From IMG/VR virus record IMGVR_UViG_3300022555_000015: a stretch of 41,362 nt of DNA; one strand, written 5' to 3'. Shown one piece after another: positions 3,226 to 35,329 of this stretch (within the stretch, counting starts at the first letter, position 1; each line of letters opens with the position of its first letter). The notes under the pieces were generated by a model, which made no database searches, was not told where the DNA came from, and worked only from the letters and a program-made list of their open reading frames with translations. Source of the DNA: a virus. Its lineage: Duplodnaviria > Heunggongvirae > Uroviricota > Caudoviricetes. A program made the position numbers and the translations under genes.

Positions 3226-3231
3226 TAAGAC

Positions 3232-3669
3232 ATGGGCATCTTGTCATTCCTGCACCTTCGTAAGCCCGAGGCACCGAAGGAGTCCATTGCCTTCATCCCG
3301 TACCTGAACGACATGAGATTCTCTGCCATGTACCGGGAGTGCTTCAAGACCTGGACATGGACCCCAAGGGCGAACCGACTGAATGGCAAGGTTCGGCTCA
3401 TGCTGGGCTACCTGCCCCCCACGGGTGGCCCTATGGTGGACCTCCTGGTCATCACTGGGCTCTCCAGCGGAGACTGGTACTTCCAGTGCTTGGAGGGGTT
3501 GAACGAGAAGTTCTACGATGTGGAACTTCAAGCCCTTCGGCTCCATGCCGGTGAGCTTACTGCCAAGTTCCTGGGGTCGGTCTGTATGCTCACTGAACCC
3601 AGGCTCAAGGACTTCATCGACACCTACAATCGTCTAGGGTCTTCCCTGTACATGGAAGAAATGACGTAA
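3232..3669 (+). CDS. hypothetical protein
   Basis: 145-aa ORF directly after motif; C-terminal LTEPRLKDFIDTYNRL resembles LNKPRLEAWLEALNTL of 2659. Confidence 0.8.
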   Translation: MGILSFLHLRKPEAPKESIAFIPYLNDMRFSAMYRECFKTWTWTPRANRLNGKVRLMLGYLPPTGGPMVDLLVITGLSSGDWYFQCLEGLNEKFYDVELQALRLHAGELTAKFLGSVCMLTEPRLKDFIDTYNRLGSSLYMEEMT

Positions 3670-3671
3670 AC

Positions 3672-4175
3672 ATGACCTTCACACCGGAAGAAATTGATGC
3701 CCTGATCCTAGGCGTCAAGTGCGCCAAGATCGAGGGACAGGTCAAGGATGAAAACCTCATCTACGGGCTCCTGTACAAGCTCAAGAAGCTGCAAGAGCCC
3801 CCCAAGCCCAAGGATTCTATCTACACCACAAGTTTCTTGAAGAAGATCAAGGGCTATGCCTGTGAAGAAGCCCTGAAAGACAGCGTGCTTCACCCCTATG
3901 GCTGGCTCCAAATCCTCACCTTGTTCATCAATCGGATGGGGATGTGCCCCTACACTACCTTCGATGACTTCATCCTCACTTGGCATTGCTGCCTGTTGGA
4001 TGCCCGCATTGGAGAAAACAGGACACCTTGCTTCCCTCTCGACCATGTGTGCATCGAACACTCACCCGCTATCTACGCTGCGATGGATCTGAAGTTCGAA
4101 GCCGAAGTGATCCCGCTTCTACCCCAGCCCTTCCAGGATGTGGTCAAGGCAACTAAGGGTCATCTGTTCGCCTAG
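3672..4175 (+). CDS. hypothetical protein
   Basis: 167-aa ORF, 2-nt gap after upstream stop. Confidence 0.75.
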   Translation: MTFTPEEIDALILGVKCAKIEGQVKDENLIYGLLYKLKKLQEPPKPKDSIYTTSFLKKIKGYACEEALKDSVLHPYGWLQILTLFINRMGMCPYTTFDDFILTWHCCLLDARIGENRTPCFPLDHVCIEHSPAIYAAMDLKFEAEVIPLLPQPFQDVVKATKGHLFA

Positions 4176-4177
4176 CC

Positions 4178-4294
4178 ATGAAACCGCCCCCAGAAGTCCT
4201 CCTAGACGTGGTACTGACGGTGTTAGGGGTAATCATCGTAGGATTGCTAACCATCATCCTTACCCTCGGCATCCTCAACACGGTAAGACCATGA
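4178..4294 (+). CDS. small membrane protein (38 aa, not in ORF track)
   Basis: MKPPPEVLLDVVLTVLGVIIVGLLTIILTLGILNTVRP; 2-nt gap upstream, ATGA overlap downstream. Confidence 0.65.
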   Translation: MKPPPEVLLDVVLTVLGVIIVGLLTIILTLGILNTVRP

Positions 4295-4824
4295 CTGACA
4301 AGTTTGTCACCATCACTGAAGCTCTGGACAACTGGAACAAGGCAATCAAGGCCGAGAAGGAAGCCCAGTTTGCCTACGAACGGGCTTACAGCAAGCTTTC
4401 CCTGGAGGAGGGTCACGAGTGGATTACCGTCCATAACGGTCAGAAACCCCTATTTACCTCTCTGTTTGACCCTAAGCTGATCGTTTGGGATGTTGAGAGG
4501 TTTCAGAGGAACTGGACCACTGATACCGTTCTACACGGGATTTTCCATAGTCTGCTCACCCTCTTCTGTGAGGAATTGGGCAAGTCTTACGCTCTCCTCA
4601 CGGCTTTGGATGTACACCGAATCTGGGTGCATTGCCTTGACATGCTCCGTCACCACCGGGGCCCCTTCGATCTAGCTGCCCTGAATGCAATGCCCGACGA
4701 TGACACAATGGATAAGTGGTTTGACAGGTTTGTAATCCCGGCATTCATCAACGAGATCCTCAACTCAGAGTTGAGGCACATTCGGGAACGGGAAGCAGCT
4801 TGGGCAAAGGATAGCCATGAATAA
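4291..4824 (+). CDS. hypothetical protein with N-terminal helical module B (start revised from 4138)
   Basis: ATGA coupling at 4291; WNKAIKAEKEAQFAYERAYSKLSLEE. Confidence 0.75.
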   Translation: MTDKFVTITEALDNWNKAIKAEKEAQFAYERAYSKLSLEEGHEWITVHNGQKPLFTSLFDPKLIVWDVERFQRNWTTDTVLHGIFHSLLTLFCEELGKSYALLTALDVHRIWVHCLDMLRHHRGPFDLAALNAMPDDDTMDKWFDRFVIPAFINEILNSELRHIREREAAWAKDSHE

Positions 4825-5026
4825 CCCCCAGCACGACCCCAAGACCGATGAGTTCCTTCAGGAAGTCATGTGCCTCTGCCAACGGTACGGCTTGGAACTC
4901 TCTGGTCTGTTTGCCGTCCATGACCTAACAGAATACCCAAACACCTGCAAGGTGGACAACATCTCCACCATTGATTCAAGGGGTATCTTCCGGTACGGCA
5001 ACACACAGTACCTCACCAGGAAATAG
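4817..5026 (+). CDS. hypothetical protein
   Basis: 69-aa ORF filling the gap in a co-oriented run. Confidence 0.65.
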   Translation: MNNPQHDPKTDEFLQEVMCLCQRYGLELSGLFAVHDLTEYPNTCKVDNISTIDSRGIFRYGNTQYLTRK

Positions 5027-5029
5027 ACA

Positions 5030-5212
5030 ATGCCTACCCGAGACCAACTTCTGGAAGCATGGGAGCACGTCAGGTCAACCCGGAACATCTCCGAGGAAGC
5101 GGCAAAAGAGGTTGAGAAAGCCTATGCTGCCTACTATAACCTCCTGATCCAATTCCCCTACCTGGAACGTGGAGAATTCCATGACTACCTGAAGTCACTG
5201 GGGAAGGAGTAA
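5030..5212 (+). CDS. small protein, helical module B
   Basis: LLEAWEHVR...EKAYAAYYNLLIQFPYLERGEF. Confidence 0.75.
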   Translation: MPTRDQLLEAWEHVRSTRNISEEAAKEVEKAYAAYYNLLIQFPYLERGEFHDYLKSLGKE

Positions 5213-5215
5213 CCC

Positions 5216-5395
5216 ATGGACACGGTACAGAAGAATGAACTCGTTGCTGCTTGGAAGAAGAAGAGAGACGCACAGATGAAGCTCTTCGATGCTGAGAAAG
5301 CTTCGGAAGAAGCTTCTGAAGCCTACTGGAGGCTACTCCAGTGTTTGACTCCTGAAGAGCGAAACGAGTTCTTCAGGTACTTGGAGACAGCATGA
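5216..5395 (+). CDS. small protein, helical module B (59 aa, not in ORF track)
   Basis: MDTVQKNELVAAWKKKRDAQMKLFDAEKASEEASEAYWRLLQCLTPEERNEFFRYLETA; clear paralog of 5030; ATGA overlap with kinase. Confidence 0.75.
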   Translation: MDTVQKNELVAAWKKKRDAQMKLFDAEKASEEASEAYWRLLQCLTPEERNEFFRYLETA

Positions 5396-6078
5396 ATAAG
5401 GTCATCATTCTCCGGGGTATTCCCGGTTCAGGTAAGTCCTACAAGGCCGAGCTTCTGGCAAAGGCTCACAAGGCTATTGACAATTCCCTTGTCATCATTC
5501 TCTCCACCGATGACTTCAATACGGATGAGAACGGTGTCTATAAGTTCAATCCCGAGTCCCACAAGCTTTGCCTCCGAAAGTACGTGGACTTCCTGACCAC
5601 CTGTAGTACCAGCCCAGGGCTGGTCATCGTGGACAACACCAACACCCGGCTCCTGGAAGCGGCACCCTACTATGCCCTTGCCGAAACCTATGGATGCCTA
5701 CGTTCTATCCTCACTATCCACTGTCCTGTGGATTTGGCCCTTGCCAGGAACAAGCACAATGTACCAGAGGATGTAATCAAGAGGATGTACGTCACCCTAG
5801 AGGAAGAGACTGCCAGAATCCCCCCATGGTGGGTGCATACCGAAGAGTATGCCCAAAGGGACAACCCAATAACATCGGCACTGCCAATGGTTGACATGAA
5901 GAAGGTTCAAGGGTTCCTTGCTGTCAGGGCACAGAAGCAGAACCTCCAGACCATCCTTGAGGGTGCCTCTAAGAGACTGGGTGAGGCCAACCAAGCCTAC
6001 GATGATCTAGTCATGGGCCTGACACCCGAAGAAGTAGAAGTGATCCGTAGTTTCCTGAATACGGGAGTCCTCAAGTGA
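5392..6078 (+). CDS. P-loop polynucleotide-kinase-like protein (AAA_33 type) with C-terminal module B
   Basis: VIILRGIPGSGKS Walker A, STDDF, VIVDNTN, lid ALARN. Confidence 0.8.
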   Translation: MNKVIILRGIPGSGKSYKAELLAKAHKAIDNSLVIILSTDDFNTDENGVYKFNPESHKLCLRKYVDFLTTCSTSPGLVIVDNTNTRLLEAAPYYALAETYGCLRSILTIHCPVDLALARNKHNVPEDVIKRMYVTLEEETARIPPWWVHTEEYAQRDNPITSALPMVDMKKVQGFLAVRAQKQNLQTILEGASKRLGEANQAYDDLVMGLTPEEVEVIRSFLNTGVLK

Positions 6079-7328
6079 TCGAAGCCATCATTCAATCCAT
6101 CATTTCTGCCCACGATGCCTACCGGGACCTTTACCACAAGGCAGAAGAAGCACGGGACAAGTACTTCGAACTACTCCATGGGTCTCCCTTCGATGAGGCC
6201 AAGGAAGCTCACCGCAGGCTCACTACAGGGAACCTTATGGCTCCCTCGACTACAGCCCCTAGCCTTGTGCAAGTCCCCCAGATACACATGGCCTGCTGGC
6301 TGAAGCGTGACCCTTCCCTCCAGCCCAAGCTGAATGCACCCCTCTATTTCTATGAAGCACCGGACGGCACGGTTTATTCCTACAATGACTACAATGACTA
6401 CAATGCTATGGGGTTTCCAAGCTACTACAAGACCCGTGAAGACTTCGCTAAGTCCTGCGGCCTGGACGTGCGATCTGTGCCCGTCATCTGGACCTTGGAT
6501 GCCCGAGACGAGGTAGAGGGCCTGTGTAACCTACGTTGCACACCAGTCAAAGATGCAGAGGCCCCAGGGCCCTCTGAGCTTCCCCTACATGTATGGCTTG
6601 AGCGTGTGCCTACTCTGGGCCTGCCCCACATCCCCCTCTTCATCCAGGTCATCAAGAGAGCAAACCACACCCGTCAAGTGCTCACCTACCTGAATGAAGA
6701 CAAGGCCAAGACAGACACAAAGGTCGTTTTCGGCTTGGACAAGTTCTGCAAGATGTTCAAGATGACCCGTCAGGAGATCCCGAGTCTCTACCGGGTTAGC
6801 AAGCGACTGGATAAAATCCAGTCAACACCGGAACTACTACTACCGACGGTCCAAAGGGGTGCATGGTTCACGATTGGAAGCTCACCCCACCATCACTACC
6901 CCGAGTTCATCATGCTTGCCGGGAACGATGTAGTCTACTATTCATCCCGAATTGACGTGTTGCTGGGTAATGCCAAAACCAAAGCTATTGCAGAATTCTG
7001 CCGTGACGAAGGCTTTGACATCAAGAACCTCCCGAAGCTCTGGACATTCTCGGCTGATAACCACCTGAGTACCCTGGAGTTCCCTCACCTGACGTGGCGA
7101 GCCCGAGACCCCTCCAAGCACTACAGCCTCCCCATCTATATCAAGGTCTTCAAGAACGGAAACATACACTCTTACCTGAACCTACAGGTAATTCCAACCT
7201 GTGCTGCCCGAACTCAAACCATCGAAGAATTCCTGAAAGAGTACAAGCTGAAGGTAGAAGACCTAGCCCTCATCTGGGACCGACCCGGTACTGATGTCCA
7301 AAGTACCCTGAAAGCTCTTGGGAAGTAA
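6075..7328 (+). CDS. protein with module B plus four ~70-aa repeats (family C)
   Basis: Repeat W...P[LI][YF]I..V..Y.N...F...[IL]P.[IL]W seen four times. Confidence 0.8.
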   Translation: MIEAIIQSIISAHDAYRDLYHKAEEARDKYFELLHGSPFDEAKEAHRRLTTGNLMAPSTTAPSLVQVPQIHMACWLKRDPSLQPKLNAPLYFYEAPDGTVYSYNDYNDYNAMGFPSYYKTREDFAKSCGLDVRSVPVIWTLDARDEVEGLCNLRCTPVKDAEAPGPSELPLHVWLERVPTLGLPHIPLFIQVIKRANHTRQVLTYLNEDKAKTDTKVVFGLDKFCKMFKMTRQEIPSLYRVSKRLDKIQSTPELLLPTVQRGAWFTIGSSPHHHYPEFIMLAGNDVVYYSSRIDVLLGNAKTKAIAEFCRDEGFDIKNLPKLWTFSADNHLSTLEFPHLTWRARDPSKHYSLPIYIKVFKNGNIHSYLNLQVIPTCAARTQTIEEFLKEYKLKVEDLALIWDRPGTDVQSTLKALGK

Positions 7329-8990: not shown

Positions 8991-9017
8991 GTTAAGAATT
9001 ACCTACCCTTGGGTAAG
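8991..9017 (+). promoter_or_regulatory. bipartite motif; ATG 6 nt downstream
   Basis: GTTAAGAAT-N12-GGTAAG-caaggc-ATG(9024). Confidence 0.85.
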
Positions 9018-9023
9018 CAAGGC

Positions 9024-9197
9024 ATGAACCTGCACGAACGCATTGCTGCCACCCTGGACTGGACCGTGGCCGAAACCCAAGGATTCTCCCTCCCGACCCT
9101 CCGAGAAATGGTCCGTAGCAAGTCCCCGAAACTCGCCCGGGAAATCTCCCTCGTCATCCAGGGCCCCCTCCTGATCCTCCCAAACCGACGATTCTAG
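9024..9197 (+). CDS. hypothetical protein (start revised from 9009)
   Basis: ATG 6 nt after motif; 57 aa. Confidence 0.7.
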   Translation: MNLHERIAATLDWTVAETQGFSLPTLREMVRSKSPKLAREISLVIQGPLLILPNRRF

Positions 9198-9224
9198 GGT
9201 AAGAAAACCCCCAACCAGAGTAAG
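9198..9224 (+). promoter_or_regulatory. degenerate bipartite motif; ATG 3 nt downstream
   Basis: cgattcta-GGTAAGAAA-N12-AGTAAG-cac-ATG(9228). Confidence 0.6.
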
Positions 9225-9227
9225 CAC

Positions 9228-9473
9228 ATGAACCGGAAGGTCCGATGGAAGGCTAAAGACTTGGCTAACCCCGAGTCCATCTGCATCCATTACCGAGAAG
9301 GCTACTACGATGTCATCCACGGCTGTGAATTGGACCGTCCGTACCAACGCTCTGTGGAGACACAACGGAACAGCCTGGACACACTAGCCTGCCAACCTAC
9401 AGGTAAGCTAGGTGCCGTCACAAGTGAAGCTCGGATGTTCTGCGAGTCACTCATCAAGAGTAAGAAGCCCTGA
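9228..9473 (+). CDS. hypothetical protein
   Basis: 81-aa ORF after motif. Confidence 0.65.
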   Translation: MNRKVRWKAKDLANPESICIHYREGYYDVIHGCELDRPYQRSVETQRNSLDTLACQPTGKLGAVTSEARMFCESLIKSKKP

Positions 9474-10219: not shown

Positions 10220-11005
10220 GTGAGGTTGGGTTTGGAACGTAAGATGTTTGGGGTGTCAAATGTATTGGTTGAACCCTGTGAAGCATTCATCACAGCGTTC
10301 TTAGGAGGGTCCGAGTTTTTCAATGCAAGGATAATCACTAGAAAGTCTCTTCGGCTTTACCAGCGTCATCCTGTTCGGCCCTTGGGTGAGCCTAGCCTGG
10401 ACCTGATCACGACGCTCAATTCACTTCATTCACGGGTGAGAGATATCTCACCGTTGACGGTGAATGGGAGGGTGTACGGGATTGACTTGGTGCATCGGGG
10501 GCATGAAGTGAAGAAGCTACTTCATGCTGGTTTTGGGGCCTACATGGCTAAGAGGGGGTATGAGCCTGAAGATGTACTCCAGGAAGTCTACAAGGGGATC
10601 ATAGCTAGGAACTATGGCAAGTGCCCATGGGATGCCAGCAAGAGTTCCTTCGGTCACTATGTCCACATGATCTGTCACTGTGTACTTTCGAACTATGCTC
10701 GGAAGATGAGACGCAGGGATCAGTTTGAGCATCTGGGGATGAGGGACAAGGATGGGGTGGAGACGGATGCAGGGGATCTAGCGGTAGAGGTAGCTGGGGG
10801 AGAACTGATGGATGAGTCAGTACTCCATGACATGTCTCTCTGGGTCCAGGGGGACTTGAGGCATCCTGAAGTCCCACTAGCGATCCTGCCTCTAGCTGCA
10901 CAGGGGTACGGTCGATCCGAGATTGCCGGTCTTACAGGGATGGAGGAAGCCACGGTGATCCAAGGGCTTCGGGAGTTACGGCAGTCTCTACGCAGGAGAG
11001 TGTGA
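10220..11005 (+). CDS. sigma-70 family (ECF-like) RNA polymerase sigma factor; start uncertain
   Basis: Region 2-like EDVLQEVYKG...WDASKSSFGHYVHMICHCVLSNYARK; region 4 HTH GYGRSEIAGLTGMEEATVIQGLRELRQSL. Confidence 0.8.
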   Translation: MRLGLERKMFGVSNVLVEPCEAFITAFLGGSEFFNARIITRKSLRLYQRHPVRPLGEPSLDLITTLNSLHSRVRDISPLTVNGRVYGIDLVHRGHEVKKLLHAGFGAYMAKRGYEPEDVLQEVYKGIIARNYGKCPWDASKSSFGHYVHMICHCVLSNYARKMRRRDQFEHLGMRDKDGVETDAGDLAVEVAGGELMDESVLHDMSLWVQGDLRHPEVPLAILPLAAQGYGRSEIAGLTGMEEATVIQGLRELRQSLRRRV

Positions 11006-11265
11006 TGTGGATACCGATAGCAGACTGGCTGGACTTAGTAGGGCCTGAAGGGTGTAGTGGTAAGCTAACAGCTTACGTTGACTCCCTGGACCTCAAGGGC
11101 TACCCCAACACGGTGCAGCTTCATGCTCATCTGGAGGTAGCTGTGACTCACTGGGTCAAGGACAGGATCATGGCTGGGGACATCCGAGTGCCCCTGCCCA
11201 GGATCGAAGTCCGTCTAGGAGATGACCCTAGGGTAGTCCTCATCGGTGTTGTAGCTATGGATTGA
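11002..11265 (+). CDS. hypothetical protein, family D
   Basis: GTGA overlap with sigma stop; MWIPIADWLDLVG...VTHWVKDRIMAG. Confidence 0.75.
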   Translation: MMWIPIADWLDLVGPEGCSGKLTAYVDSLDLKGYPNTVQLHAHLEVAVTHWVKDRIMAGDIRVPLPRIEVRLGDDPRVVLIGVVAMD

Positions 11266-11273
11266 GGGGGCTG

Positions 11274-11543
11274 ATGTGGACAGCTATCGGACCCTGGTTG
11301 GATCGTATCGGAGCCCCTGACCTGAAGGATGCCATCTATGAGGCTACTGAAGACATGTATCCAGGGGATCTCCTGGACGCTGGAGTCCAGGAGATTGTCC
11401 GCTACCGGGTGGCCCAATGGCTCGGTGAGCAAGTCATAGCTGGTAAGCTACCGGGCATAACCCGTCTCCTGGACCTACCTGAAGTAGTCGTCCGTCCAAG
11501 CTCCACTCCCTTCGAAGCCGTAGTCGGCATCGAAGAACCGTAG
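11274..11543 (+). CDS. hypothetical protein, family D
   Basis: MWTAIGPWLDRIG...VAQWLGEQVIAG; GAGGGG upstream. Confidence 0.75.
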   Translation: MWTAIGPWLDRIGAPDLKDAIYEATEDMYPGDLLDAGVQEIVRYRVAQWLGEQVIAGKLPGITRLLDLPEVVVRPSSTPFEAVVGIEEP

Positions 11544-11734
11544 CATGGGGCAGTCCAGACTTTCCCGACATACGGCATCCATTATCGAAAGGTCGATTGG
11601 ACCCCTGGTGCCAAAGGATACCTTCGGGGTCTAGGGTGGGTCCAGGGTGGGGGTCTATGCTACGGACTTCTGATTCGTTGGCAGGCAGCCTTGGAGGCAG
11701 AGCCAGCCGATGTGGGAGAGGGTGGTTTGGAGGA

Positions 11735-12513: not shown

Positions 12514-12860
12514 TAGCAAATTCTCTCGGGGATGATGAGGATGAGGGGAGTGTGCTTCAGGATTGCCTGAAGCACAACCGTGAGTTCTTCCAGGCTCCCG
12601 TGATGGTTACCCCAGCCGTTGACTCCCCAGAGTTCCTTCGGTACGGGCTTGGTACCTGTGTAGTTCCAAGGCGACCAACTCAGGTGGCTGTGACCCCCGG
12701 GGGTAAGATCGGACCACAACTCCAGGTTCACTTCCCCTGCCTCCCACTGAAGCCGAAGGGACTCACTACAGATGAACTCTCCAGCCTTGCTCGGCAGGGG
12801 CAATCCAGGCACTAGCCGCCGAAGGATGTTCAGGTGGTTTGTGGCTACGGGGATGCTCAT
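12513..12860 (-). CDS. hypothetical protein (start revised from 13061)
   Basis: First ATG after motif at 12880-12906; 115 aa. Confidence 0.7.
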   Translation of the reverse strand: MSIPVATNHLNILRRLVPGLPLPSKAGEFICSESLRLQWEAGEVNLELWSDLTPGGHSHLSWSPWNYTGTKPVPKELWGVNGWGNHHGSLEELTVVLQAILKHTPLILIIPERIC

Positions 12861-12879
12861 AGTAGGTCTCTCAACTCTA

Positions 12880-12906
12880 CTTACCGTGACCGGAGGGAAT
12901 CTTAAC
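12880..12906 (-). promoter_or_regulatory. bipartite motif; ATG 19 nt downstream
   Basis: GTTAAGATT-N12-GGTAAG-N19-ATG(12860). Confidence 0.85.
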
Positions 12907-12913
12907 TTGGAAT

Positions 12914-13228
12914 CTAGGGAGGGGGTTCGGGGAGACCGTAGGCGGTACGGATGACCTCGGGGCTCTTCAGGTAGGCTTCGTTGTCCTGGATCTGGGAGAG
13001 CACCAGGGGCTCCTTCATGTAGGGGACTGTGCCCTTTGGATGGCTCATGTTCTCCAGCCACATGTACTGCTTGTTGGAGAGGGCCAGCCAGAAGCCCACC
13101 CGTCGGCTGTGACTCGTATGGCCGGTGGTGAGGTACCAGTTGTCCTCCCCGTCTTTCTGGGTGCTAGCCGCCAGGGTGTAGATGACACCCTGGACCGCAA
13201 AACTGAGGGTGCGTGCCTTGAGCTTCAT
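12914..13228 (-). CDS. hypothetical protein (start revised from 13357)
   Basis: ATG 6 nt after motif; MKLKARTLSFAVQG. Confidence 0.75.
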   Translation of the reverse strand: MKLKARTLSFAVQGVIYTLAASTQKDGEDNWYLTTGHTSHSRRVGFWLALSNKQYMWLENMSHPKGTVPYMKEPLVLSQIQDNEAYLKSPEVIRTAYGLPEPPP

Positions 13229-13234
13229 GTTTTC

Positions 13235-13261
13235 CTTACCATTAGGTAGCAGAATCTTAAC
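13235..13261 (-). promoter_or_regulatory. bipartite motif; ATG 6 nt downstream
   Basis: GTTAAGATT-N12-GGTAAG-gaaaac-ATG(13228); contains the stop codon of the upstream gene. Confidence 0.85.
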
Positions 13262-13535
13262 TCCTGATCTTCGGCCGACACCGCATTTGGCCTGAGGGTC
13301 CCTCGGGGGCATCGGAGTTCTCCTGGCAGTCAGTGATAGGTAGGCACCCCATGTCAAAGAAGAACAGGATGACTTCCTCCAGGGTCGGGAACTGGGCTAG
13401 GGGGAACTCCTGGTAGCCTTCCCCTGCTTGCCTCTCACCACACAGGCACCAATGCTTACGGTTCCAGTTCAGGCAGTAACGGTAGGGCCGATCACGGTCG
13501 ATCTGCCGAGCGGCGAATGTGTACCGGGGGTTCAA
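13257..13535 (-). CDS. hypothetical protein
   Basis: 92-aa ORF, ATGA-coupled. Confidence 0.7.
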   Translation of the reverse strand: MNPRYTFAARQIDRDRPYRYCLNWNRKHWCLCGERQAGEGYQEFPLAQFPTLEEVILFFFDMGCLPITDCQENSDAPEGPSGQMRCRPKIRS

Positions 13536-13987
13536 TGGTACAGGATCTCAGAAGAGGCACCTACCCGGAAGGCATGGACCTCTACGCCTTCCAAGCTGTT
13601 GAAGTAGCCAGTCCAGGGCAGGTACCTGCCCTCCTTTTCGGCACGCTTCTCCATGGCACCACTCTCGATGTCAGTTTTGATGGAGAGTGCCTCTCTCTCG
13701 ATTTCAGTAGCCCTGAAGACTTCCCAATTGCCATGGGACGTGCCGAAGGTATCCCCGTCCCGGTAGCGAACGATCACTAGGTAGACCATGCTGGCCTTGC
13801 CTGTGTCTTCGGAGACTTCGATCTCTTTCACGCTAGGGTCAGGGAAGAAGGTCTTGGACTTCGGGGGCTCCCGGAACAGGCCCAGGAACGTGACCTTGGT
13901 GTATGCAGGCTCACGGTCGGAGAACTGTTCTTCGGTGAGTCTCTCCCCACCTGTGACATTCTCCTTGTAGGTCAGGTACAGCTTCAT
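13532..13987 (-). CDS. hypothetical phage protein (start revised from 14014)
   Basis: MKLYLTYKE...VIVRYRDGDTFG...WTGYFNSL. Confidence 0.75.
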   Translation of the reverse strand: MKLYLTYKENVTGGERLTEEQFSDREPAYTKVTFLGLFREPPKSKTFFPDPSVKEIEVSEDTGKASMVYLVIVRYRDGDTFGTSHGNWEVFRATEIEREALSIKTDIESGAMEKRAEKEGRYLPWTGYFNSLEGVEVHAFRVGASSEILYH

Positions 13988-13995
13988 GCTTGGTA

Positions 13996-14301
13996 TTACC
14001 CCTCTTCGATGCAATACATCTTGGGAAGCATCTCCAGGAGCAACTGGAATGCCCAGTTGTCCAGTTTCTTGCCCTCGGTGTTTGCCGTCTCATGGGGCAG
14101 ACGGGCAGGGTGCCAGTAGTCGTCCAGGACTACGATCTTGTCTTCAACGAGGGTCACCACATAGTTGCCGACGGTGTGGTCCAGATGAGGGACCCTGCCA
14201 CGGACACCCAGAGTCCAGAGGCCCGACTCCCACCACAGGCTGTAGTCCAAGCCTTGGTTACGCTGAAAGAAGTAGTAGTCCCTTGTTCGTCGGAGCTTCA
14301 T
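13996..14301 (-). CDS. hypothetical protein
   Basis: 101-aa ORF in co-oriented run. Confidence 0.7.
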   Translation of the reverse strand: MKLRRTRDYYFFQRNQGLDYSLWWESGLWTLGVRGRVPHLDHTVGNYVVTLVEDKIVVLDDYWHPARLPHETANTEGKKLDNWAFQLLLEMLPKMYCIEEG

Positions 14302-14305
14302 CTCA

Positions 14306-14563
14306 TCACCTGTGAACGCTGTACCTGGAATTCATCCCGTTCCGCATGAAGTCCTGGTTGCACTTCCGTGCCGTGACCCCGATTTCAAAGCTGTACCGGG
14401 CTTCCTCCTTGGCCCAGACTTTCAGTGAACTGCGGGTAGGCTTGATCAAGCCTGTCTTGACCTGTTTCTTCCCGCAGAGGCCACATAGCTTGCACTGATA
14501 GCCCCGTGACTCCATCGGAACAGGCACCCAATCATGGGGGCATTCAAGCTTGTCCATGGTCAT
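14306..14563 (-). CDS. putative zinc-ribbon protein, family J
   Basis: CPHDWVPVPME...YQCKLCGLCGKK; paralog at 30271. Confidence 0.75.
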   Translation of the reverse strand: MTMDKLECPHDWVPVPMESRGYQCKLCGLCGKKQVKTGLIKPTRSSLKVWAKEEARYSFEIGVTARKCNQDFMRNGMNSRYSVHR

Positions 14564-14757
14564 GCCCTCAAGTACGTCGTACAGACGGAAGGGGCACTGA
14601 GCACCTGCTTGGTGACCCCATCGTGACCGAAAAGAGCGATCACGTTCTTGGCCTGAAGGATCGTGGCATCCATCTCCGGGTCTTCCGGCATGGATGAAGG
14701 GTCCAAGTAGCAGAGGATGTTGTTGAGCAACAATGCCAGGGTGTGCGTGGTATCCAT
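14560..14757 (-). CDS. hypothetical protein
   Basis: ATG 6 nt after motif. Confidence 0.7.
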   Translation of the reverse strand: MDTTHTLALLLNNILCYLDPSSMPEDPEMDATILQAKNVIALFGHDGVTKQVLSAPSVCTTYLRA

Positions 14758-14763
14758 GGCAGT

Positions 14764-14790
14764 CTTACCTGAAGGTAACTGAATCTTAAC
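14764..14790 (-). promoter_or_regulatory. bipartite motif; ATG 6 nt downstream
   Basis: GTTAAGATT-N12-GGTAAG-actgcc-ATG(14757). Confidence 0.85.
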
Positions 14791-14800
14791 CTGGATTCGG

Positions 14801-14998: not shown

Positions 14999-15010
14999 GT
15001 CGGTACACCC

Positions 15011-15247
15011 CTACAGCTTGTCGGGGTCGAACGTGGACCGGGACCGTGCCACAACATCAGCTTCCTTGCCGAGCCCGGCAATGCGAAGAGCATCTTCCAG
15101 GCTTCCGTAGCGATCCGTCCAGCCCTTGGAGGTATACACCCTCCATTCGGTACGCTGGGCTGCATAGTCAATGCTGTACTCGATCAAACGGTCAAGCAGC
15201 ATCCGTAGGATCTTGCGGTGAAGGCCGATCTCAATGGTGGGGTCCAT
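15011..15247 (-). CDS. hypothetical protein (start revised from 15265)
   Basis: ATG 6 nt after motif; MDPTIEIGLHRK. Confidence 0.75.
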   Translation of the reverse strand: MDPTIEIGLHRKILRMLLDRLIEYSIDYAAQRTEWRVYTSKGWTDRYGSLEDALRIAGLGKEADVVARSRSTFDPDKL

Positions 15248-15253
15248 ACCTCC

Positions 15254-15280
15254 CTTACTACCCAAGGCACCGATCTTAAC
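15254..15280 (-). promoter_or_regulatory. bipartite motif; leftward member of a back-to-back pair
   Basis: GTTAAGATC-N12-AGTAAG-ggaggt-ATG(15247). Confidence 0.85.
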
Positions 15281-15303
15281 CTAAATTCGGTCACCGATTT
15301 CAA

Positions 15304-15330
15304 GTTAAGTTTCAGCCCTGCCACGGTTAG
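15304..15330 (+). promoter_or_regulatory. bipartite motif; rightward member of a back-to-back pair
   Basis: GTTAAGTTT-N12-GGTTAG-agaggc-ATG(15337). Confidence 0.8.
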
Positions 15331-15336
15331 AGAGGC

Positions 15337-15528
15337 ATGAGCCAGATGAAAGACCATTGGATCGTGGTGCTGAAGAACAAGCAGTACATCAAGTACACAG
15401 GCACCCCCTGTACCCTCACCATGTACCGGGAACTCGCCCACGGCTGGCACTACAAGAAGGAAGCCCAGGCCGAAGCAATCAAGTGGGGTGGTGCAACAGT
15501 GGAGCGACGGTTGACCCCCATCGTGTAA
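15337..15528 (+). CDS. hypothetical protein
   Basis: 63 aa, directly after motif. Confidence 0.75.
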   Translation: MSQMKDHWIVVLKNKQYIKYTGTPCTLTMYRELAHGWHYKKEAQAEAIKWGGATVERRLTPIV

Positions 15529-15532
15529 CAAC

Positions 15533-15664: not shown

Positions 15665-15666
15665 GC

Positions 15667-20672: not shown

Positions 20673-21178
20673 CCGGGGGTCCAGTGCTGGTTGAGAGTTC
20701 TTTCCAACTGGCAGTAAGCAGCCTTGGAAGGAATCTGATCGGGATGTGTCTTGGGGCTGCATTCTCGGCAGAGGGGGATTTGATCTCCTGGCTTCCGGTC
20801 GGGAAGCAGGGTCCAGAAGGGGGTAGGCTTGTGGCACCGGCAACAGGACTCCTGGGGTCCCATGCCATCAGGCTCCCGTTCGGTAGGGATGTCACTGGCA
20901 ATGATCCTGCCCTTGGTTCGCAGGAATTCATGGGTCACGAATCGGGGGAGTTCGTCTCCGAGGAGCTTGAGCTTGGACTTCAGAGCATAGCCGGTGAAGC
21001 CATGGGACTCCAGCCAAGTCCGGTCCCAATGCTGGGTACAGAGCTTGGCGGTGTTGGTCCGGGTCTTGGAGATGTTGACCAGGGTACAGGGCGGGTCACT
21101 GGTATGACCCGTGAAGGTATCCATGGGGATGTAGTAGATCCTGCCGAGGGAGAAGGGGGTCTTGCGAGGTTTGCCCAT
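20669..21178 (-). CDS. family E protein with C-terminal Cys motif
   Basis: FSLGRIYY; CCRCHK...LCREC; ATG 6 nt after motif. Confidence 0.75.
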   Translation of the reverse strand: MGKPRKTPFSLGRIYYIPMDTFTGHTSDPPCTLVNISKTRTNTAKLCTQHWDRTWLESHGFTGYALKSKLKLLGDELPRFVTHEFLRTKGRIIASDIPTEREPDGMGPQESCCRCHKPTPFWTLLPDRKPGDQIPLCRECSPKTHPDQIPSKAAYCQLERTLNQHWTPG

Positions 21179-21184
21179 GTCTAT

Positions 21185-21211
21185 CTTACCGTAGGGTTGC
21201 TGAATCTTAAC
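21185..21211 (-). promoter_or_regulatory. bipartite motif; ATG 6 nt downstream
   Basis: GTTAAGATT-N12-GGTAAG-atagac-ATG(21178). Confidence 0.85.
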
Positions 21212-21220
21212 CTGAAAAAC

Positions 21221-21595
21221 TCAAGCTGCTTTGTAGATGGGGGTAGTGATATAGGTGTGGAAACCTACCTGGAAGTCCTGGTCCCAGGTGTTGCTACTCC
21301 AGGGAAGTACCCTTGCAGTATTCTCGATGTGTGTACGTGTCAGGGATACACGGGTCTTGTGACCCTGTGCTTCCAGGATAGTTTCCAGGAGAGGGTGTGC
21401 AAGCTTCCAGGTCAAGTCGGGGCACAAGCTGTTCTTGGCCCACGTCTTGTCACACCGGAGTGTACAGAGGAAGGTGTCGGGTTCTGACCCTGGACCCCGG
21501 ATGATGAGGATGACCGGGAGTTTCCCGGTTTGTTCACGGTGAGTGTTGAAGAGGTACCAGCGTCGGCCGATTTGAAACCTGGGGTCCGTTTCCAT
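21221..21595 (-). CDS. hypothetical protein, family E (start revised from 21751)
   Basis: FQIGRRWY; AAGGAGAGG SD between motif and ATG. Confidence 0.75.
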   Translation of the reverse strand: METDPRFQIGRRWYLFNTHREQTGKLPVILIIRGPGSEPDTFLCTLRCDKTWAKNSLCPDLTWKLAHPLLETILEAQGHKTRVSLTRTHIENTARVLPWSSNTWDQDFQVGFHTYITTPIYKAA

Positions 21596-21611
21596 GATTG
21601 CCTCTCCTTTG

Positions 21612-21638
21612 CTTACCTGGGAGGGGCTGAATCTTAAC
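21612..21638 (-). promoter_or_regulatory. bipartite motif; ATG 16 nt downstream with SD
   Basis: GTTAAGATT-N12-GGTAAG-caaaggagaggcaatc-ATG(21595). Confidence 0.85.
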
Positions 21639-26804: not shown

Positions 26805-27263
26805 CTACTTCCAGTACTTCTCCGTCACCACCCGACGAAGGTCCCGAAGGGCCATGATCTCGTTCTTACCCCGGCCACACAGGGGAAGGATGAAATGGTT
26901 GTTTGAGAAAGCTGAAGCGAAATAGGGACCGGAGGTATCCGCTCCCGATAGCTTTCCAGCCCAGCCCATGGGACCACGGAGGGGCTCATCTTCCTTGCCG
27001 AAGGGGAGCCGCTGGGTGTCCACGAAGTTGATCTTACCCCTGGAAATGTCCAGGATTTCCTGTGCGAGCTTGGCCTTGCGGGCTTGGGCCTGAGCCGGGG
27101 ACAGGACACGGACGGCCTTGGTATGGGTACCTTCGGTAGTCATGTCCGCTCTGATGAGCTTATCCAGAGCGGGGTCACCCGTACTTCCGGTCTTGAGACC
27201 CTCCTGGAAGCCCTTGCTGAACTTCTCACACTCGGGATTGGTGTCATTCATGGGATTACTCAC
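26805..27263 (-). CDS. protein with C-terminal family G domain
   Basis: LSPAQAQARKAKLAQEIL...CGRGKNEIMALRDL; matches C-terminus of 27260. Confidence 0.8.
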   Translation of the reverse strand: MSNPMNDTNPECEKFSKGFQEGLKTGSTGDPALDKLIRADMTTEGTHTKAVRVLSPAQAQARKAKLAQEILDISRGKINFVDTQRLPFGKEDEPLRGPMGWAGKLSGADTSGPYFASAFSNNHFILPLCGRGKNEIMALRDLRRVVTEKYWK

Positions 27264-29059
27264 TTGTACTTATCCTTGACAGTAGCCAGGAGGTTCTTGA
27301 GTGCCTTGAGTTCCGTGGTTCCCCCAACCACCATGTTCGGGTCGTTATGGTGATTCCTTGCCACGATGAAGTACGGGCCAGGATCACCCACATACCTCAT
27401 GTGGTGAGCGATGGAGAGAACCATGCTCTGTAGGGAGACTGAAACATCCATGTTGTAGGGGATACGGAACATCTCAGTGTACTTGATGGTACTCTTAGAG
27501 GCAGAGATGATTTCCCGGACAAGCTCCATCTTCCGAGCTTCGGCCTTGGCAGGACTGAGCTTCTTGGGCTCCGGGTTGTGCTCCGGGTTGTGCTGGAAGA
27601 ATCCAAGGGCACATCCCTGGGCTTCAGTGTACTCCTGCATGGTCAGACATCCAGGATGGACATAACCCTTGTGAAGCTCAAGGAAGATGTAGTCTCCCTT
27701 ACAGAAGTCCTTGTTGCACCGGATACAGGTTCCAGGGACTCCTGCAATGATCTTCCTGGAGAACTTCTTGATGGGGATTTCAGCCTTCTGGCTTGCCAGG
27801 GTATCCTTGAGGGTTTCAGCCTTCATACTTGCCAGGGCATCCTTGGACATGAACTTCATGGCTTCCATGGCATTTGTCAGAGCAAGATCCTCGGTTTCAC
27901 CCTTGTAAATGAACTTCCGGGGAGCATTCTGGTCTTCCTTCCAAGCATCAATGAAGCAGTAGGCAGGGTCACTGAGCTTGGCAGGTACGGTGTTGACCTT
28001 GACATTATTGAACCCCTTGGAATAGAGGAAGTCAGTGATTTCCTTGCAGAGACCCTCGGTCTTGGCCTGGGCAGCAAGATTCATCCCCTGCTTCCGAAGA
28101 TCCTGGAGAGCATCCAAGTAAGTATCCCCAGTACCCTGGTACTTCTTGTAGAAACTCTTGGGATCATTCACACCGAGAAAGACCATTACACCCGTGAGGG
28201 GTGAGGGGGCCTTCCCCGGTGAAGAGATTGAAACCGTGATATCGTTCCGGGTTCGGAAGAGCTTGGCAACCACGTCCAGAAGGTTTCTGGTCTGGGCCTG
28301 GACATCCTTCTCCACCCTCTCGACTTCCTCCAGGAGAGCCATCATGGCATAGGCATCCTTACTTCCATTGCCAGTGTAGGTCTTCACAGTGCCCTTCTTG
28401 TTTACTACGGCAACTGCTTCCCTGAAGAGATTCTTGCCGGGGCTCTTGGCAGCTTGCAACCACACGTTCACTTCGGTTCCGGGATGCAGCCGGTGAAGAA
28501 CCTGAGCAATCTGTTCCCGGACCTTCGAATTCTCATCCATAGGATGAAACACCCTTTCCTTGATATTTCGGATCAGGTCTTCCAGTGCCTCGATTTCAGA
28601 GTTACCCTTACTATGAAGGGTAGCCACTGTGCCACACTTGTTGCTCAGGTTGACGGTGTAGAAGAACATACCGTCAACCTGCTTGCACTCAGGCCCCTCC
28701 ACCGTATTGAAGGAGTAGGCTTCGGAGAGAAGCCTGATGGCTTCGTTCCTGAGACGTTGGGCTGCGATGGACATGTTAAGTCCAGGGGTGCTGGCTTCCT
28801 TGGGCTCCATTCCCCGGTCCAGGTTGATGATGCCCAGGAGCATCTGGAGGGCCTCTTCCTCGGTCTTCCCGTAGCCAGTGTAGGCTCCCCTCACGTTGTC
28901 CTTGTCCATCGTCTTGATGTCCAGCAACTTCGCATGGACGAGCACCCCCATGACCGTACTTCCCCTGGGGGGACTGATTTCACCCTTGTAAATCTGGGCG
29001 TTCTGGTTCCTGAGAAGGGCACCTAGAACTGCGGAACGGAGGCTTTCAATGGTTTCCAT
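27260..29059 (-). CDS. 599-aa protein with six family G domains and a Zn-finger-like insert
   Basis: GKTEEEAL, GNSEIEAL, GSKDAYAM, GDTYLDAL, GETEDLAL, GTTELKAL; CIRC...HPGC. Confidence 0.85.
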   Translation of the reverse strand: METIESLRSAVLGALLRNQNAQIYKGEISPPRGSTVMGVLVHAKLLDIKTMDKDNVRGAYTGYGKTEEEALQMLLGIINLDRGMEPKEASTPGLNMSIAAQRLRNEAIRLLSEAYSFNTVEGPECKQVDGMFFYTVNLSNKCGTVATLHSKGNSEIEALEDLIRNIKERVFHPMDENSKVREQIAQVLHRLHPGTEVNVWLQAAKSPGKNLFREAVAVVNKKGTVKTYTGNGSKDAYAMMALLEEVERVEKDVQAQTRNLLDVVAKLFRTRNDITVSISSPGKAPSPLTGVMVFLGVNDPKSFYKKYQGTGDTYLDALQDLRKQGMNLAAQAKTEGLCKEITDFLYSKGFNNVKVNTVPAKLSDPAYCFIDAWKEDQNAPRKFIYKGETEDLALTNAMEAMKFMSKDALASMKAETLKDTLASQKAEIPIKKFSRKIIAGVPGTCIRCNKDFCKGDYIFLELHKGYVHPGCLTMQEYTEAQGCALGFFQHNPEHNPEPKKLSPAKAEARKMELVREIISASKSTIKYTEMFRIPYNMDVSVSLQSMVLSIAHHMRYVGDPGPYFIVARNHHNDPNMVVGGTTELKALKNLLATVKDKYK

Positions 29060-29065
29060 GGTTCT

Positions 29066-29092
29066 CTTACCGTAGCCTTTGAGATTCTTAAC
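29066..29092 (-). promoter_or_regulatory. bipartite motif; ATG 6 nt downstream
   Basis: GTTAAGAAT-N12-GGTAAG-agaacc-ATG(29059). Confidence 0.85.
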
Positions 29093-29431: not shown

Positions 29432-29799
29432 AGGCTGGTTCCTTTCAGGGTGCCGTCCTTGACCATGGCTTCCACCAGGGACCGAAGGGCTGAGAGACGG
29501 GTGTTCCCGGTGCCTTCCCAGGTCTTGTGGCAGTCATAGGCAACCGCCTTGAACTCACCCTCGGTCATGTCCTCCGGGAGTAGCTGAATCTCGGAGGGGT
29601 ACCAGTTGTGGTCTGCCACCACTTCCCAAACCGTCCCCTTCACCTGGACCACCCTCACTCGACCAATGTCCGGGTTCCGAAGGTTCCCCAGGATTTCGTC
29701 CAGGTACATCTCCATCTGGGCTTCCGCATTGAACCTTACGGCAAGGCTGGACTGCCTCTGGATGTGTGTATGAACTTTTGTGGCCCATGCGAGGTTCAT
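29428..29799 (-). CDS. protein with family G domain
   Basis: FKAVAY...EGTGNTRLSALRSLV. Confidence 0.75.
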   Translation of the reverse strand: MNLAWATKVHTHIQRQSSLAVRFNAEAQMEMYLDEILGNLRNPDIGRVRVVQVKGTVWEVVADHNWYPSEIQLLPEDMTEGEFKAVAYDCHKTWEGTGNTRLSALRSLVEAMVKDGTLKGTSL

Positions 29800-29815
29800 G
29801 TTGTTCCTCCCCCTA

Positions 29816-29842
29816 GTTACTGTAATCAGCCCGAATCTTAAC
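29816..29842 (-). promoter_or_regulatory. bipartite motif; ATG 16 nt downstream with SD
   Basis: GTTAAGATT-N12-AGTAAC-tagggggaggaacaac-ATG(29799). Confidence 0.8.
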
Positions 29843-31783: not shown

Positions 31784-32028
31784 TGTACACCTTTCAGGTC
31801 TAACCAGATACCTTCAGGAACTCTGTTCCCTGTATCACCCCAGCCAAAGACACAACCTTCGGGATAGCCCCTCTTGGCTAGGTCATCGTGAATCTCTGGA
31901 AGGTGCCCAGGTTCGCAGAGACAGAGAACCAGGGTCTTAGTCCCTTGATACGGACAAACCCTTACCGCCTTGACCCAGCGAGGCAGAGGGGAGAGTACAG
32001 CTAGAAGTGTCTTAGTGCTGAAGGACAT
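31768..32028 (-). CDS. hypothetical protein
   Basis: First ATG after motif at 32043-32069. Confidence 0.7.
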   Translation of the reverse strand: MSFSTKTLLAVLSPLPRWVKAVRVCPYQGTKTLVLCLCEPGHLPEIHDDLAKRGYPEGCVFGWGDTGNRVPEGIWLDLKGVQWESY

Positions 32029-32042
32029 GGCAATCTATGTGG

Positions 32043-32069
32043 ATTACCACACTTGGTCCAAAACTTAAC
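32043..32069 (-). promoter_or_regulatory. bipartite motif; ATG 14 nt downstream
   Basis: GTTAAGTTT-N12-GGTAAT-N14-ATG(32028). Confidence 0.75.
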
Positions 32070-34345: not shown

Positions 34346-34357
34346 GGGGATGTTACC

Positions 34358-34612
34358 CTATTCCTCGGGACGGGGGTCGAAGAGCTTCTTGAACTTCGCC
34401 ATGTGGGCACTGTCCACACTGTAGATGTTCTCCCCAGTCAGGCAATCGAAGATGTGGCCCTCTTCGATGGCTTCCGTCAGGAACATCTGGAGATGGTCAT
34501 ACAGGGACAGGACTGCCTCCGGGAGGGAAGCAAACCCACCGTCCCAATGGCCGATGGTGTGGTTCCCTTCGGTGCCTTTGACCGTTGCTTCGGGCCAATA
34601 GCGGTTGTCCAT
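34358..34612 (-). CDS. hypothetical protein
   Basis: ATG 6 nt after motif. Confidence 0.75.
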   Translation of the reverse strand: MDNRYWPEATVKGTEGNHTIGHWDGGFASLPEAVLSLYDHLQMFLTEAIEEGHIFDCLTGENIYSVDSAHMAKFKKLFDPRPEE

Positions 34613-34618
34613 GCCTCT

Positions 34619-34645
34619 ATTACCATTGACTTCCTGAACCTTAAC
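34619..34645 (-). promoter_or_regulatory. bipartite motif; ATG 6 nt downstream
   Basis: GTTAAGGTT-N12-GGTAAT-agaggc-ATG(34612). Confidence 0.8.
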
Positions 34646-34694
34646 TAGAAATCGTAGATAAACCGTAGACAGCCTGAGTTCCCCCTAGTTTACG

Positions 34695-34768
34695 CTAGGT
34701 TGGAATTCTTCGGCCAGTTTCGGCAGTCTTCGGCGGCCGAAACTGGCTGCCGAAGGTTTTCAACCTAG
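34695..34768. other. 74-nt imperfect hairpin capped by C(TTCG)G
   Basis: CTAGGTTG/CAACCTAG, CTTCGGC/GCCGAAG and CAGTTTCGGC/GCCGAAACTG stack into one stem; loop c-TTCG-g at 34728-34733. Confidence 0.75.
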
Positions 34769-34794
34769 AATTTCAAGTATGCGGAATCTATTGA

Positions 34795-34851
34795 CTTTCT
34801 CTTAATCTCTCTGACTGTATCTTTGATACAGTCAGAGAGATTAAGAGAAAG
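34795..34851. repeat. perfect inverted repeat, 27-bp arms, 3-nt spacer
   Basis: CTTTCTCTTAATCTCTCTGACTGTATC-ttt-GATACAGTCAGAGAGATTAAGAGAAAG. Confidence 0.95.
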
Positions 34852-34912
34852 CTCGGGGAATACACATACACACCTTGCCCACACTGTACTTACTGTAGGT
34901 TCACGATTCCGA

Positions 34913-34939
34913 GTTAAGATTCGGTCGGGGTGTAGTAAG
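34913..34939 (+). promoter_or_regulatory. bipartite motif; ATG 6 nt downstream
   Basis: GTTAAGATT-N12-AGTAAG-tagggc-ATG(34946). Confidence 0.85.
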
Positions 34940-34945
34940 TAGGGC

Positions 34946-35329
34946 ATGACCACAACGGCAAACCTGAAGAAGTCCCAGGTCGTCAACATCAGGGTCCTTC
35001 TCCAGTCCATCGGGAGTGAGTTTCTTGCCCGGTTCAACGGGGGGGCCAAGGTGAAGTGTGCGACCATCACGGAGTTGGCTGTCATGGACGGCTTCTTCTT
35101 CGATGGTCGGCTCACGGCTGACACGGACCTGGGGATGGTCACGGTGGGTCTGATCCTGCGGAATCCCCTGACCCTGGAGTACAAGCTTTACGGTCGGATC
35201 GTGGCTTCCAGTGGGTCCAGCGATGGTTTCGTTCAGAGTTCCAGCAAGGGCACCCTGGACATCACGGGCAAGACGGTCCCGGCAATCGTGGCGGAACTGG
35301 GCAAGTGCATCAAGTACATGAAGGAGTAG
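34946..35329 (+). CDS. hypothetical protein, family H
   Basis: FFFDGRL...YKLYGRI; paralog of 36084. Confidence 0.8.
   Translation: MTTTANLKKSQVVNIRVLLQSIGSEFLARFNGGAKVKCATITELAVMDGFFFDGRLTADTDLGMVTVGLILRNPLTLEYKLYGRIVASSGSSDGFVQSSSKGTLDITGKTVPAIVAELGKCIKYMKE

Follow-up and report, generated by a model that had tools for sequence, protein, structure and literature searches.

How does a phage start the first genes of its transcription units when their ATG codons stand at one invariant distance behind a repeated sequence element? The question is posed by the 41,362 nucleotides (nt) of IMG/VR virus record IMGVR_UViG_3300022555_000015 (Caudoviricetes), herein referred to as the window. The element is a two-box motif, and at ten of its 16 sites in the window exactly 6 nt lie between its second box, RGTAAG, and an ATG. 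An earlier note on the same DNA had proposed that transcription begins at these ATGs, meaning that the first genes of most units would be leaderless. Leaderless messenger RNAs (mRNAs) are the best reading of the units with this 6-nt gap (gap-6 units), with a start site predicted from promoter geometry; its probability is estimated at about 0.65.

The window belongs to the genome of a huge, uncultivated phage from freshwater, with a GC content of ~52–53%. Near-identical contigs, up to the 0.2–1 Mb class, occur in many freshwater metagenomes (JGI 3300009502, several ENA BUCK21 samples, and Logan runs) and show 0–9 differing positions per 13.5–21 kb of overlap with the window. An enlarged set was compiled from the window, its flanks from other assemblies, and more pieces of the same phage, amounting to ~92 kb (~50 kb added). 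These pieces were retrieved by the motif pattern without the ATG, and the sites of the enlarged set were called by a weight matrix.

Architecture and placement of the two-box motif

The motif consists of cGATTTCaa-GTTAAGA-tTC, ~11 variable bases, and (ta)nRGTAAG, with exactly 14 nt from GTTAAGA to RGTAAG. It spans approximately −41 to −7 if RGTAAG is taken as −12 to −7. In the window, 15 strict sites and one weak site (first box GGTAAGA, at 9198) were found. The enlarged set contains 37 sites, all with the 14-nt box spacing and all oriented toward the downstream gene, and according to the weight matrix both boxes are equally conserved. RGTAAG by itself occurs in 60 copies versus 32 expected. 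The combination RGTAAG-N6-ATG is found ten times in the window versus 0.58 times expected, a count reached by none of 100 shuffles. Eight of these ten matches are the motif sites with ATGs at 3232, 9024, 13228, 14757, 15247, 21178, 29059, and 34946. Two more sites, 15337 and 34612, carry the variant second boxes GGTTAG and GGTAAT behind a full first box, and their gap is also 6 nt. The matches at 17673 and 37744 were dismissed as chance, being intragenic and without a first box upstream; 17673 lies in a paralogous duplicated stretch. The genes concerned, 17215–17856 and 18033–19319 (both on the minus strand), contain paralogous segments with a near-identical stretch of ~55 nt at 17630–17740 and 18630–18740.

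The gap was measured from the second box to the first ATG opening at least 40 codons. Among the 37 sites it amounts to 6 nt at 17 and to 14–21 nt at 13, with single sites at 3, 29, and 43 nt and four sites having no such ATG; gaps of 0–2, 4–5, and 7–13 nt are absent. The site with the 29-nt gap precedes an array of tRNA-type genes, and its open reading frame (ORF) of 71 codons is probably spurious. Under a null of even spread over 0–21 nt, the concentration at one gap value has a P of ~5e-9 for ten of the 16 window sites and of ~5e-14 for 17 of 31 sites in the enlarged set. The counts given by the earlier note for the window proved exact, and each of the ten ATGs opens a real ORF. Its description of the remaining six sites was likewise confirmed: one has a gap of 3 nt (ATG 9228) and five have gaps of 14–19 nt, namely 14 (32028), 15 (36084), 16 (29799 and 21595), and 19 nt (12860), three of them with GAGG, GGAGG, or AGGAG.

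The motif as a transcription signal

Judged from the DNA, the two-box motif is a transcription signal and not a ribosome-binding site. At L133:5630 it stands in front of an array of tRNA-type genes that follows 14 nt past the second box, and tRNA-Ala and tRNA-Arg are located downstream of the site near 47013. This placement points to a role in transcription. The earlier note had itself named GGTAAG as an atypical ribosome-binding site as the scenario that would refute it. In favor of such a translation signal—or of one like the start-associated sequences of Cluster K mycobacteriophages—UAAG could pair with a 16S 3′ end of the Escherichia coli type (CUUA-3′), and RGTAAG is over-represented, as given above. 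Yet wherever RGTAAG stands 6 nt before a gene start, the first box is present 15 nt upstream of it, the motif also precedes the tRNA-type array and ORF-less sites, and units with a long gap carry an ordinary Shine–Dalgarno (SD) sequence. The scenario was rejected on these results together with the constant orientation toward genes and the divergent pairs described below, and we regard any translational role of RGTAAG as extremely improbable.

Within positions 1–40000 of the window, hexamer pairs of the sigma70 type are under-represented (7 versus 12.0 and 5 versus 12.6 expected from shuffles), which therefore leaves the two-box motif as the sole over-represented promoter-like signal; intrinsic-terminator-like hairpins in the same range are at chance level. 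In neither register is the sixth position of the second box a conserved T, and hence this box does not correspond to a −10 of the T4 middle type (TAnnnT). An archaeal reading (TATA box and B recognition element) was dropped, as the phage has a bacterial-type sigma factor, SD sites, and transfer-messenger RNA (tmRNA).

Several placements of the motif were observed in addition. Divergent back-to-back pairs are frequent (15245–15339; L130:9806–9926; L129:4257–4371), with first boxes 24–60 nt apart and the upstream GATTTC elements overlapping as a near-palindrome. Strong sites without an ORF start within ~40 nt lie at 44567–45183 and 46576–47013 in the window plus flank (L125) and near 4257, 4371, and 2885 in L129. 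Downstream of such sites, 400–600 nt are devoid of called genes, and one of these stretches leads to tRNA-Ala and tRNA-Arg; they may be long leaders or unannotated RNAs. The array at L133:5630–6722 contains sub-threshold tRNA-like hits at 5671–5740 (26.6 bits) and 6008–6114 (tRNA-Sec-like, 24 bits), a tRNA-Phe at 6396–6484 with a 24-nt insertion in the anticodon loop, and a tRNA-Glu. A full-length tmRNA gene at L133:2800–3176 (Rfam, 91.6 bits; tag peptide ANDNASPSELRQAA) has no motif promoter in front.

The gap-6 ATGs as probable start codons

All 17 gap-6 ATGs of the enlarged set open ORFs, of 57–599 codons, and at all 17 a −10-like box ends exactly 6 nt before the ATG. ATG is herein the only start codon, as opposed to 78 ATG, eight GTG, and one TTG among other genes. 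The gene table lists 11 gap-6 genes; an SD core at a distance of 3–11 nt precedes none of them, versus 35 of 87 other genes (40%) and 11% of random positions. In-frame stops close the frame one or two codons upstream of six of the 17 ATGs, and only three of the 17 have a downstream in-frame start with an SD within the first 40 codons. Of the ten gap-6 ATGs of the window, nine serve as starts in the stored gene calls of one or more independent assemblies, the exception being 13228.

The clearest case is a gene just right of the window, L125:19528–20397, encoding a radical S-adenosylmethionine (SAM) protein of 289 amino acids (aa). The reading frame is closed one codon ahead of the ATG. Residue 26 is the start of the radical SAM domain, residues 31–38 hold the Cys motif, and the next Met is far downstream, leaving no other possible ATG. 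In a strain variant that is 99.5% identical overall (L131), the promoter of this gene is changed in two bases of the spacer and in the R of the second box but retains both boxes, the 6 nt, and the ATG; this is a single case. Folding of the first 36 nt does not distinguish the leaderless candidates from other gene starts (−3.4 versus −4.0 kcal/mol, not significant), both being weaker than random sequence.

The earlier note had suggested an adaptation to a host with few SD sequences. This finds no support, given the 40% of other genes with an SD core, which is ~fourfold above random, and the SD cores at ten of the 13 sites with short leaders. The alternative in the note, that leaderless messages escape a damaged canonical initiation, is speculative.

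Predicted transcription start and route of expression

Open complexes of the sigma70 family have the −10 element at −12 to −7. In a solved open complex of a sigma factor of the extracytoplasmic function (ECF) type, the −10 element occupies −12 to −7 (PMC12019637). With RGTAAG in this register, +1 would be the seventh base past the box, which at gap-6 sites is the A of the ATG. Among predicted leaderless ECF promoters, A is enriched at +1 (bioRxiv 10.1101/2020.06.23.168245), and a −10-like signal ~10 nt ahead of the start is routinely used to predict leaderless genes (PMC3160421). The gap-6 sites fit the start-site preference for a pyrimidine at −1 and a purine at +1: −1 is C at 15 sites and T at two, and +1 is A at all 17. 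The alternative register with TAAGnn as the −10 element puts +1 inside the ATG and would destroy 17 start codons. The ATG itself is not a promoter element, because the long-gap sites do not carry ATG at position 7.

At ten of the 13 short-leader sites (gap of 14–21 nt), position 7, 8, or 9 past the box is the first base of a GAGG or AGGA core, and the distance from this core to the ATG varies from 4 to 9 nt. The translation signal—AUG or SD—would then begin where the transcript is predicted to begin.

The following route is the most likely explanation of these data. The motif, its rigid geometry, the sigma homolog, and the lack of usable SDs are observed, and the start position, the sigma factor that reads the motif, and the mode of translation are predicted. 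The two-box motif would constitute the phage's own promoter class, read by a holoenzyme of the sigma70 family; the most plausible one combines host core RNA polymerase with the ECF-like sigma factor encoded by the phage at 10244–11005. With RGTAAG as the −10 element at −12 to −7, transcription would start from the seventh base after it. In ten units of the window, and at 17 of the 37 sites in ~92 kb, the first transcribed base would be the A of the ATG. An mRNA starting with AUG would enter the leaderless pathway, wherein the ribosome recognizes the 5′-terminal AUG without SD pairing. Most other units would have a minimal leader of 8–15 nt with the SD core at its front, and tRNA-type genes would be driven from a few sites.

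A candidate sigma factor

The gene 10244–11005 (plus strand) encodes a divergent ECF-like sigma factor of 253 aa, which is a candidate for reading the motif. Searched by itself, the protein has no match in Pfam and no more than a weak one in PHROG. More than 300 homologs were found, many of them on contigs of 100–500 kb. A profile of 32 homologs matches the sigma-H structure 3mzy over both domains (E 7.5e-6), and among these 32, Pfam families were hit by eight (Sigma70_ECF) and six (Sigma70_r2) sequences. The AlphaFold model (predicted local distance difference test score, pLDDT, of 76) shows two helical domains, with very low confidence for residues 1–52 and low confidence for residues 53–70. 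In a Foldseek search with this model, the top matches are almost all ECF sigma factors, with a probability of up to 0.98 and an E of 0.009. Hence, the phage encodes a two-domain (sigma2 and sigma4) factor of the sigma70 family. That this factor reads the two-box motif is plausible. Jumbo phages that encode a sigma factor and use the host core polymerase are a known group (PMC7824862).

Another huge phage, represented by a 357-kb contig with 63% GC (L127), the sigma factor of which is 50% identical, carries the word GATT(T/C)(C/G)(C/A)AACCA before two or three genes with ordinary leaders, at 11200–11720 and 20500–20540. Only the GATTTC part is in common with the motif, which is too little to use.

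Weighing of the readings

The claim of leaderless first genes is partly supported, its geometric part by several independent sequence features: the gap is an invariant 6 nt, −1 is a pyrimidine, +1 is A, the codon is always ATG, a usable SD is absent, frames are closed upstream, and SD-led alternatives are few. What it leaves less firm is the exact base, as a leader of 1–5 nt also fits. Several further points weigh against it. The C at −1 is also frequent (49%) before other genes of the phage and is thus weakly specific. GGTAAG lacks the A−11 and T−7 of the sigma70 −10 element, the start-site geometry is drawn by analogy with alternative sigma factors, and the sigma factor is assigned to the motif by inference from their presence in the same genome. 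Positions 7–12 past the box are purine-rich in every class of sites, including the ORF-less ones, so GAGG at +1 may partly be a promoter feature. Several promoters lie directly behind a co-directional gene with no terminator, and read-through transcripts in which these ATGs are internal probably also exist. The site at 9228, with its 3-nt gap and weak first box, falls outside the model. At 13228, the stored calls take the upstream in-frame ATG 13312 (gene 12914–13312, minus strand), which follows an AGGAG at a distance of 7 nt; this may reflect two protein forms, a promoter inside the gene, or one miscalled start.

The same promoter could start 1–5 nt upstream of the ATG, at a purine within the 6-nt stretch tAGRGg, and produce short leaders without an SD. 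This stretch is purine-rich and similar in all classes of sites, and the absence of anything overlapping positions 1–6 could be a promoter constraint instead of a mark of the start site. Against this, position 6 is a pyrimidine and position 7 an A in 17 of 17 cases, and variation by even ±1 nt is completely lacking, which fits the need for a 5′-terminal AUG better than the tolerance of a short leader. Such near-leaderless transcripts are considered fairly unlikely. The gap might also reflect nothing but the tightest packing, with the motif being a promoter and translation proceeding mainly from read-through transcripts by SD-independent internal initiation. Promoters do abut upstream co-directional genes, terminator-like sites are not above chance, and ~60% of other genes likewise lack a strict SD core. 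Packing leaves both the constant ATG at position 7 and the six frames closed 1–2 codons upstream unexplained, which makes compaction as the only cause decidedly unlikely.

The role of the motif in transcription might further be that of a regulator or activator site acting with host sigma70, as for MotA of T4, with the start set by a cryptic host −10. The conserved upstream block measures 18 nt, which is longer than a −35 hexamer and centered near −32 like a MotA box, and the link to the sigma gene is circumstantial. Herein, a −10 of the TAnnnT type at a fixed place is missing, the shifted register TAAGnn runs into the ATG as described above, and the second box is conserved as strongly as the first, so an activator site is very improbable. 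Leaderless transcription of the gap-6 units, the preferred reading, could be extended to a two-track program driven by one private sigma-specific promoter. Half of the promoter-proximal genes would be delivered as 5′-AUG mRNAs to 70S ribosomes when SD-dependent initiation is shut off or damaged, be it by host defense or by the phage, possibly in connection with the unusually rich set of RNA-repair genes; the other units would use the minimal SD-first leader. In our estimate this program is unlikely, and the link of leaderless messages to the RNA-repair genes of the phage is speculative.

Individual promoters of the window

The plus strand carries four gap-6 promoters. At 3199..3234, GTTAAGA (3199–3205) and AGTAAG (3220–3225) precede ATG 3232 of a 145-aa gene (3232–3669), which has an in-frame stop one codon upstream and a start used in stored calls. 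The promoter at 8991..9026 (GTTAAGA, GGTAAG at 9012–9017) leads to ATG 9024 of a 57-aa gene (9024–9197), with the start called in L126 and L002. The one at 15304..15339 has the variant boxes GTTAAGT and GGTTAG (15325–15330) before ATG 15337 of a 63-aa gene with an in-frame stop two codons upstream; it stands back to back with the minus-strand promoter at 15280, and the start is called at 15337 in L001 and at 15346 in L002. At 34913..34948, GTTAAGA and AGTAAG (34934–34939) precede ATG 34946 of a 127-aa gene (34946–35329) that has a stop one codon upstream and is called in L125.

Six gap-6 promoters are located on the minus strand. The promoter at 34610..34645 (GTTAAGG, GGTAAT at 34624–34619; ATG 34612) drives an 84-aa gene heading a block with an Rnl1-type RNA ligase. 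Those at 29057..29092 (GTTAAGA, GGTAAG at 29071–29066; ATG 29059), 21176..21211 (GTTAAGA, GGTAAG at 21190–21185; ATG 21178), and 14755..14790 (GTTAAGA, GGTAAG at 14769–14764; ATG 14757) precede genes of 599 aa (27260–29059), 169 aa, and 65 aa, respectively. In the promoter at 15245..15280 (GTTAAGA, AGTAAG at 15259–15254; ATG 15247, 78-aa gene) the gap reads ggaggt; this GGAGGT is too close for SD function because it abuts the ATG. The promoter at 13226..13261 (GTTAAGA, GGTAAG at 13240–13235; ATG 13228, 104 codons) is ambiguous, the frame being open upstream.

Among the other sites, the 15-nt-gap promoter at 36042..36086 (plus strand) has a GAGG starting at position 7 past the box, 5 nt before ATG 36084. 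The two 16-nt-gap promoters are on the minus strand: 29797..29842 has the second box AGTAAC, GGAGG at positions 6–10, and ATG 29799, and 21593..21638 has AGGAG/GAGG at positions 4–11 and ATG 21595. On the same strand, the 19-nt-gap promoter at 12858..12906 shows only a weak GAGAG before ATG 12860, and the 14-nt-gap promoter at 32026..32069 (GTTAAGT, GGTAAT) has no SD before ATG 32028, whose 86-codon ORF is absent from stored gene calls. The weak 3-nt-gap site at 9198..9230 (plus strand; GGTAAGA, AGTAAG at 9219–9224; ATG 9228) scores 21.7 versus 30–51 for the other window sites and may not be functional.

Gene content and relatives of the phage

Among the gene products of the window are two RNA ligases, a kinase, radical SAM proteins, and a nucleoside hydrolase, and the genome carries tRNAs and the tmRNA. 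No RNA sequencing run was listed for positions 12800–21700. At L126:12–812, ~5.5 kb left of the window, stored gene calls place a gene product with the Pfam families Anti-Pycsar Apyc1 and metallo-beta-lactamase.

The phage showed no close relative in the phage GenBank collection, IMG/VR, or GTDB genomes, and the first of these contained no DNA or protein match. Beyond the pieces of the phage itself, the two-box pattern gave only chance singletons in the collections searched: chance single hits in IMG/VR, where the 599-aa protein is also without a relative, two chance hits in GTDB genomes with differing GC content and no similarity, and one chance hit in the metagenome scan, which otherwise returned more pieces of the same phage. 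The promoter-led 169-aa and 599-aa proteins are essentially without homologs. The closest homologs of the sigma factor and the ligase (61–65% identity) come from runs SRR23086390 and SRR23086375. The contig carrying the RNA ligase homolog P0004 belongs to an unrelated high-GC phage and lacks the motif. A literature search on the box sequences yielded nothing relevant.

Implications

If the leaderless reading is true, phage leaderless programs are no longer confined to Thermus and actinobacterial phages but include a huge, uncultivated phage from freshwater. Such a program would then be linked to a phage-encoded ECF-like sigma factor, and a compact promoter would be available that sets its start site with single-base precision. 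The sharp alternative of AUG or SD at +1 would provide simple, testable rules by which start codons and transcription units of huge-phage metagenomes could be annotated; gap-6 starts are sometimes missed or shifted there by gene callers. The reading is also relevant to proposals of a redirection of translation initiation by huge phages (PMC7162821).

Comparison with known systems

In its predicted register, the motif shares with ECF (group 4) promoters two short boxes at fixed spacing, a GT-containing −10 element at −12 to −7, and a pyrimidine/purine start, and a sigma factor with only sigma2 and sigma4 domains is encoded nearby. In contrast, GTTAAGA and RGTAAG match no ECF group found, the conserved upstream block measures 18 nt, and ~75 additional residues, modeled as disordered, extend the sigma factor at its N-terminus. 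T4 middle promoters likewise combine a phage-specific box near −30 (the MotA box) with a downstream −10-like box, but the second box described here is not TAnnnT. T4 middle transcripts have leaders. The start-associated sequences of Cluster K mycobacteriophages resemble the motif in being repeated and locked to the start codons of unrelated phage genes. Their sequence includes the SD, and a role in translation is ascribed to them. The present motif, on the other hand, also stands before tRNA-type genes and has a two-class gap distribution.

The jumbo phages phiKZ and AR9, which have their own RNA polymerases, are also huge phages with private promoter classes. Both have long leaders. For phiKZ, differential RNA sequencing (dRNA-seq) revealed no leaderless transcript (PMC8244752), AR9 leaders measure 26–491 nt (PMC5312081), and phages of this type carry no sigma factors (PMC7824862).

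The closest likeness is to the Thermus phages phiYS40 and Lalka27a, large lytic phages with a promoter class from which most transcripts begin at the initiator codon. In phiYS40, most middle and late mRNAs are leaderless, and initiation factor IF2 rises while IF3 falls (PMC3594737). In Lalka27a, the initiator codon is where most transcripts begin, and the late promoters are marked by a private −10, TAGGGT, which is taken to imply a phage factor altering polymerase specificity (bioRxiv 10.64898/2026.04.20.719267). Leaderless genes are also abundant in their host phylum itself, Deinococcus–Thermus (PMC3160421). The 5′ ends of those phages were mapped, whereas here they are predicted from DNA; moreover, the present promoter is of a rigid two-box, ECF-like type, and about one-third of the units use a minimal SD-first leader. 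Hence, a phage leaderless program as such is a known kind of system. New in the present case are the all-or-nothing gap distribution, the SD at the predicted +1 of leadered units, the motif before tRNA-type genes, the verified sigma homolog, and the rejection of the ribosome-binding-site reading.

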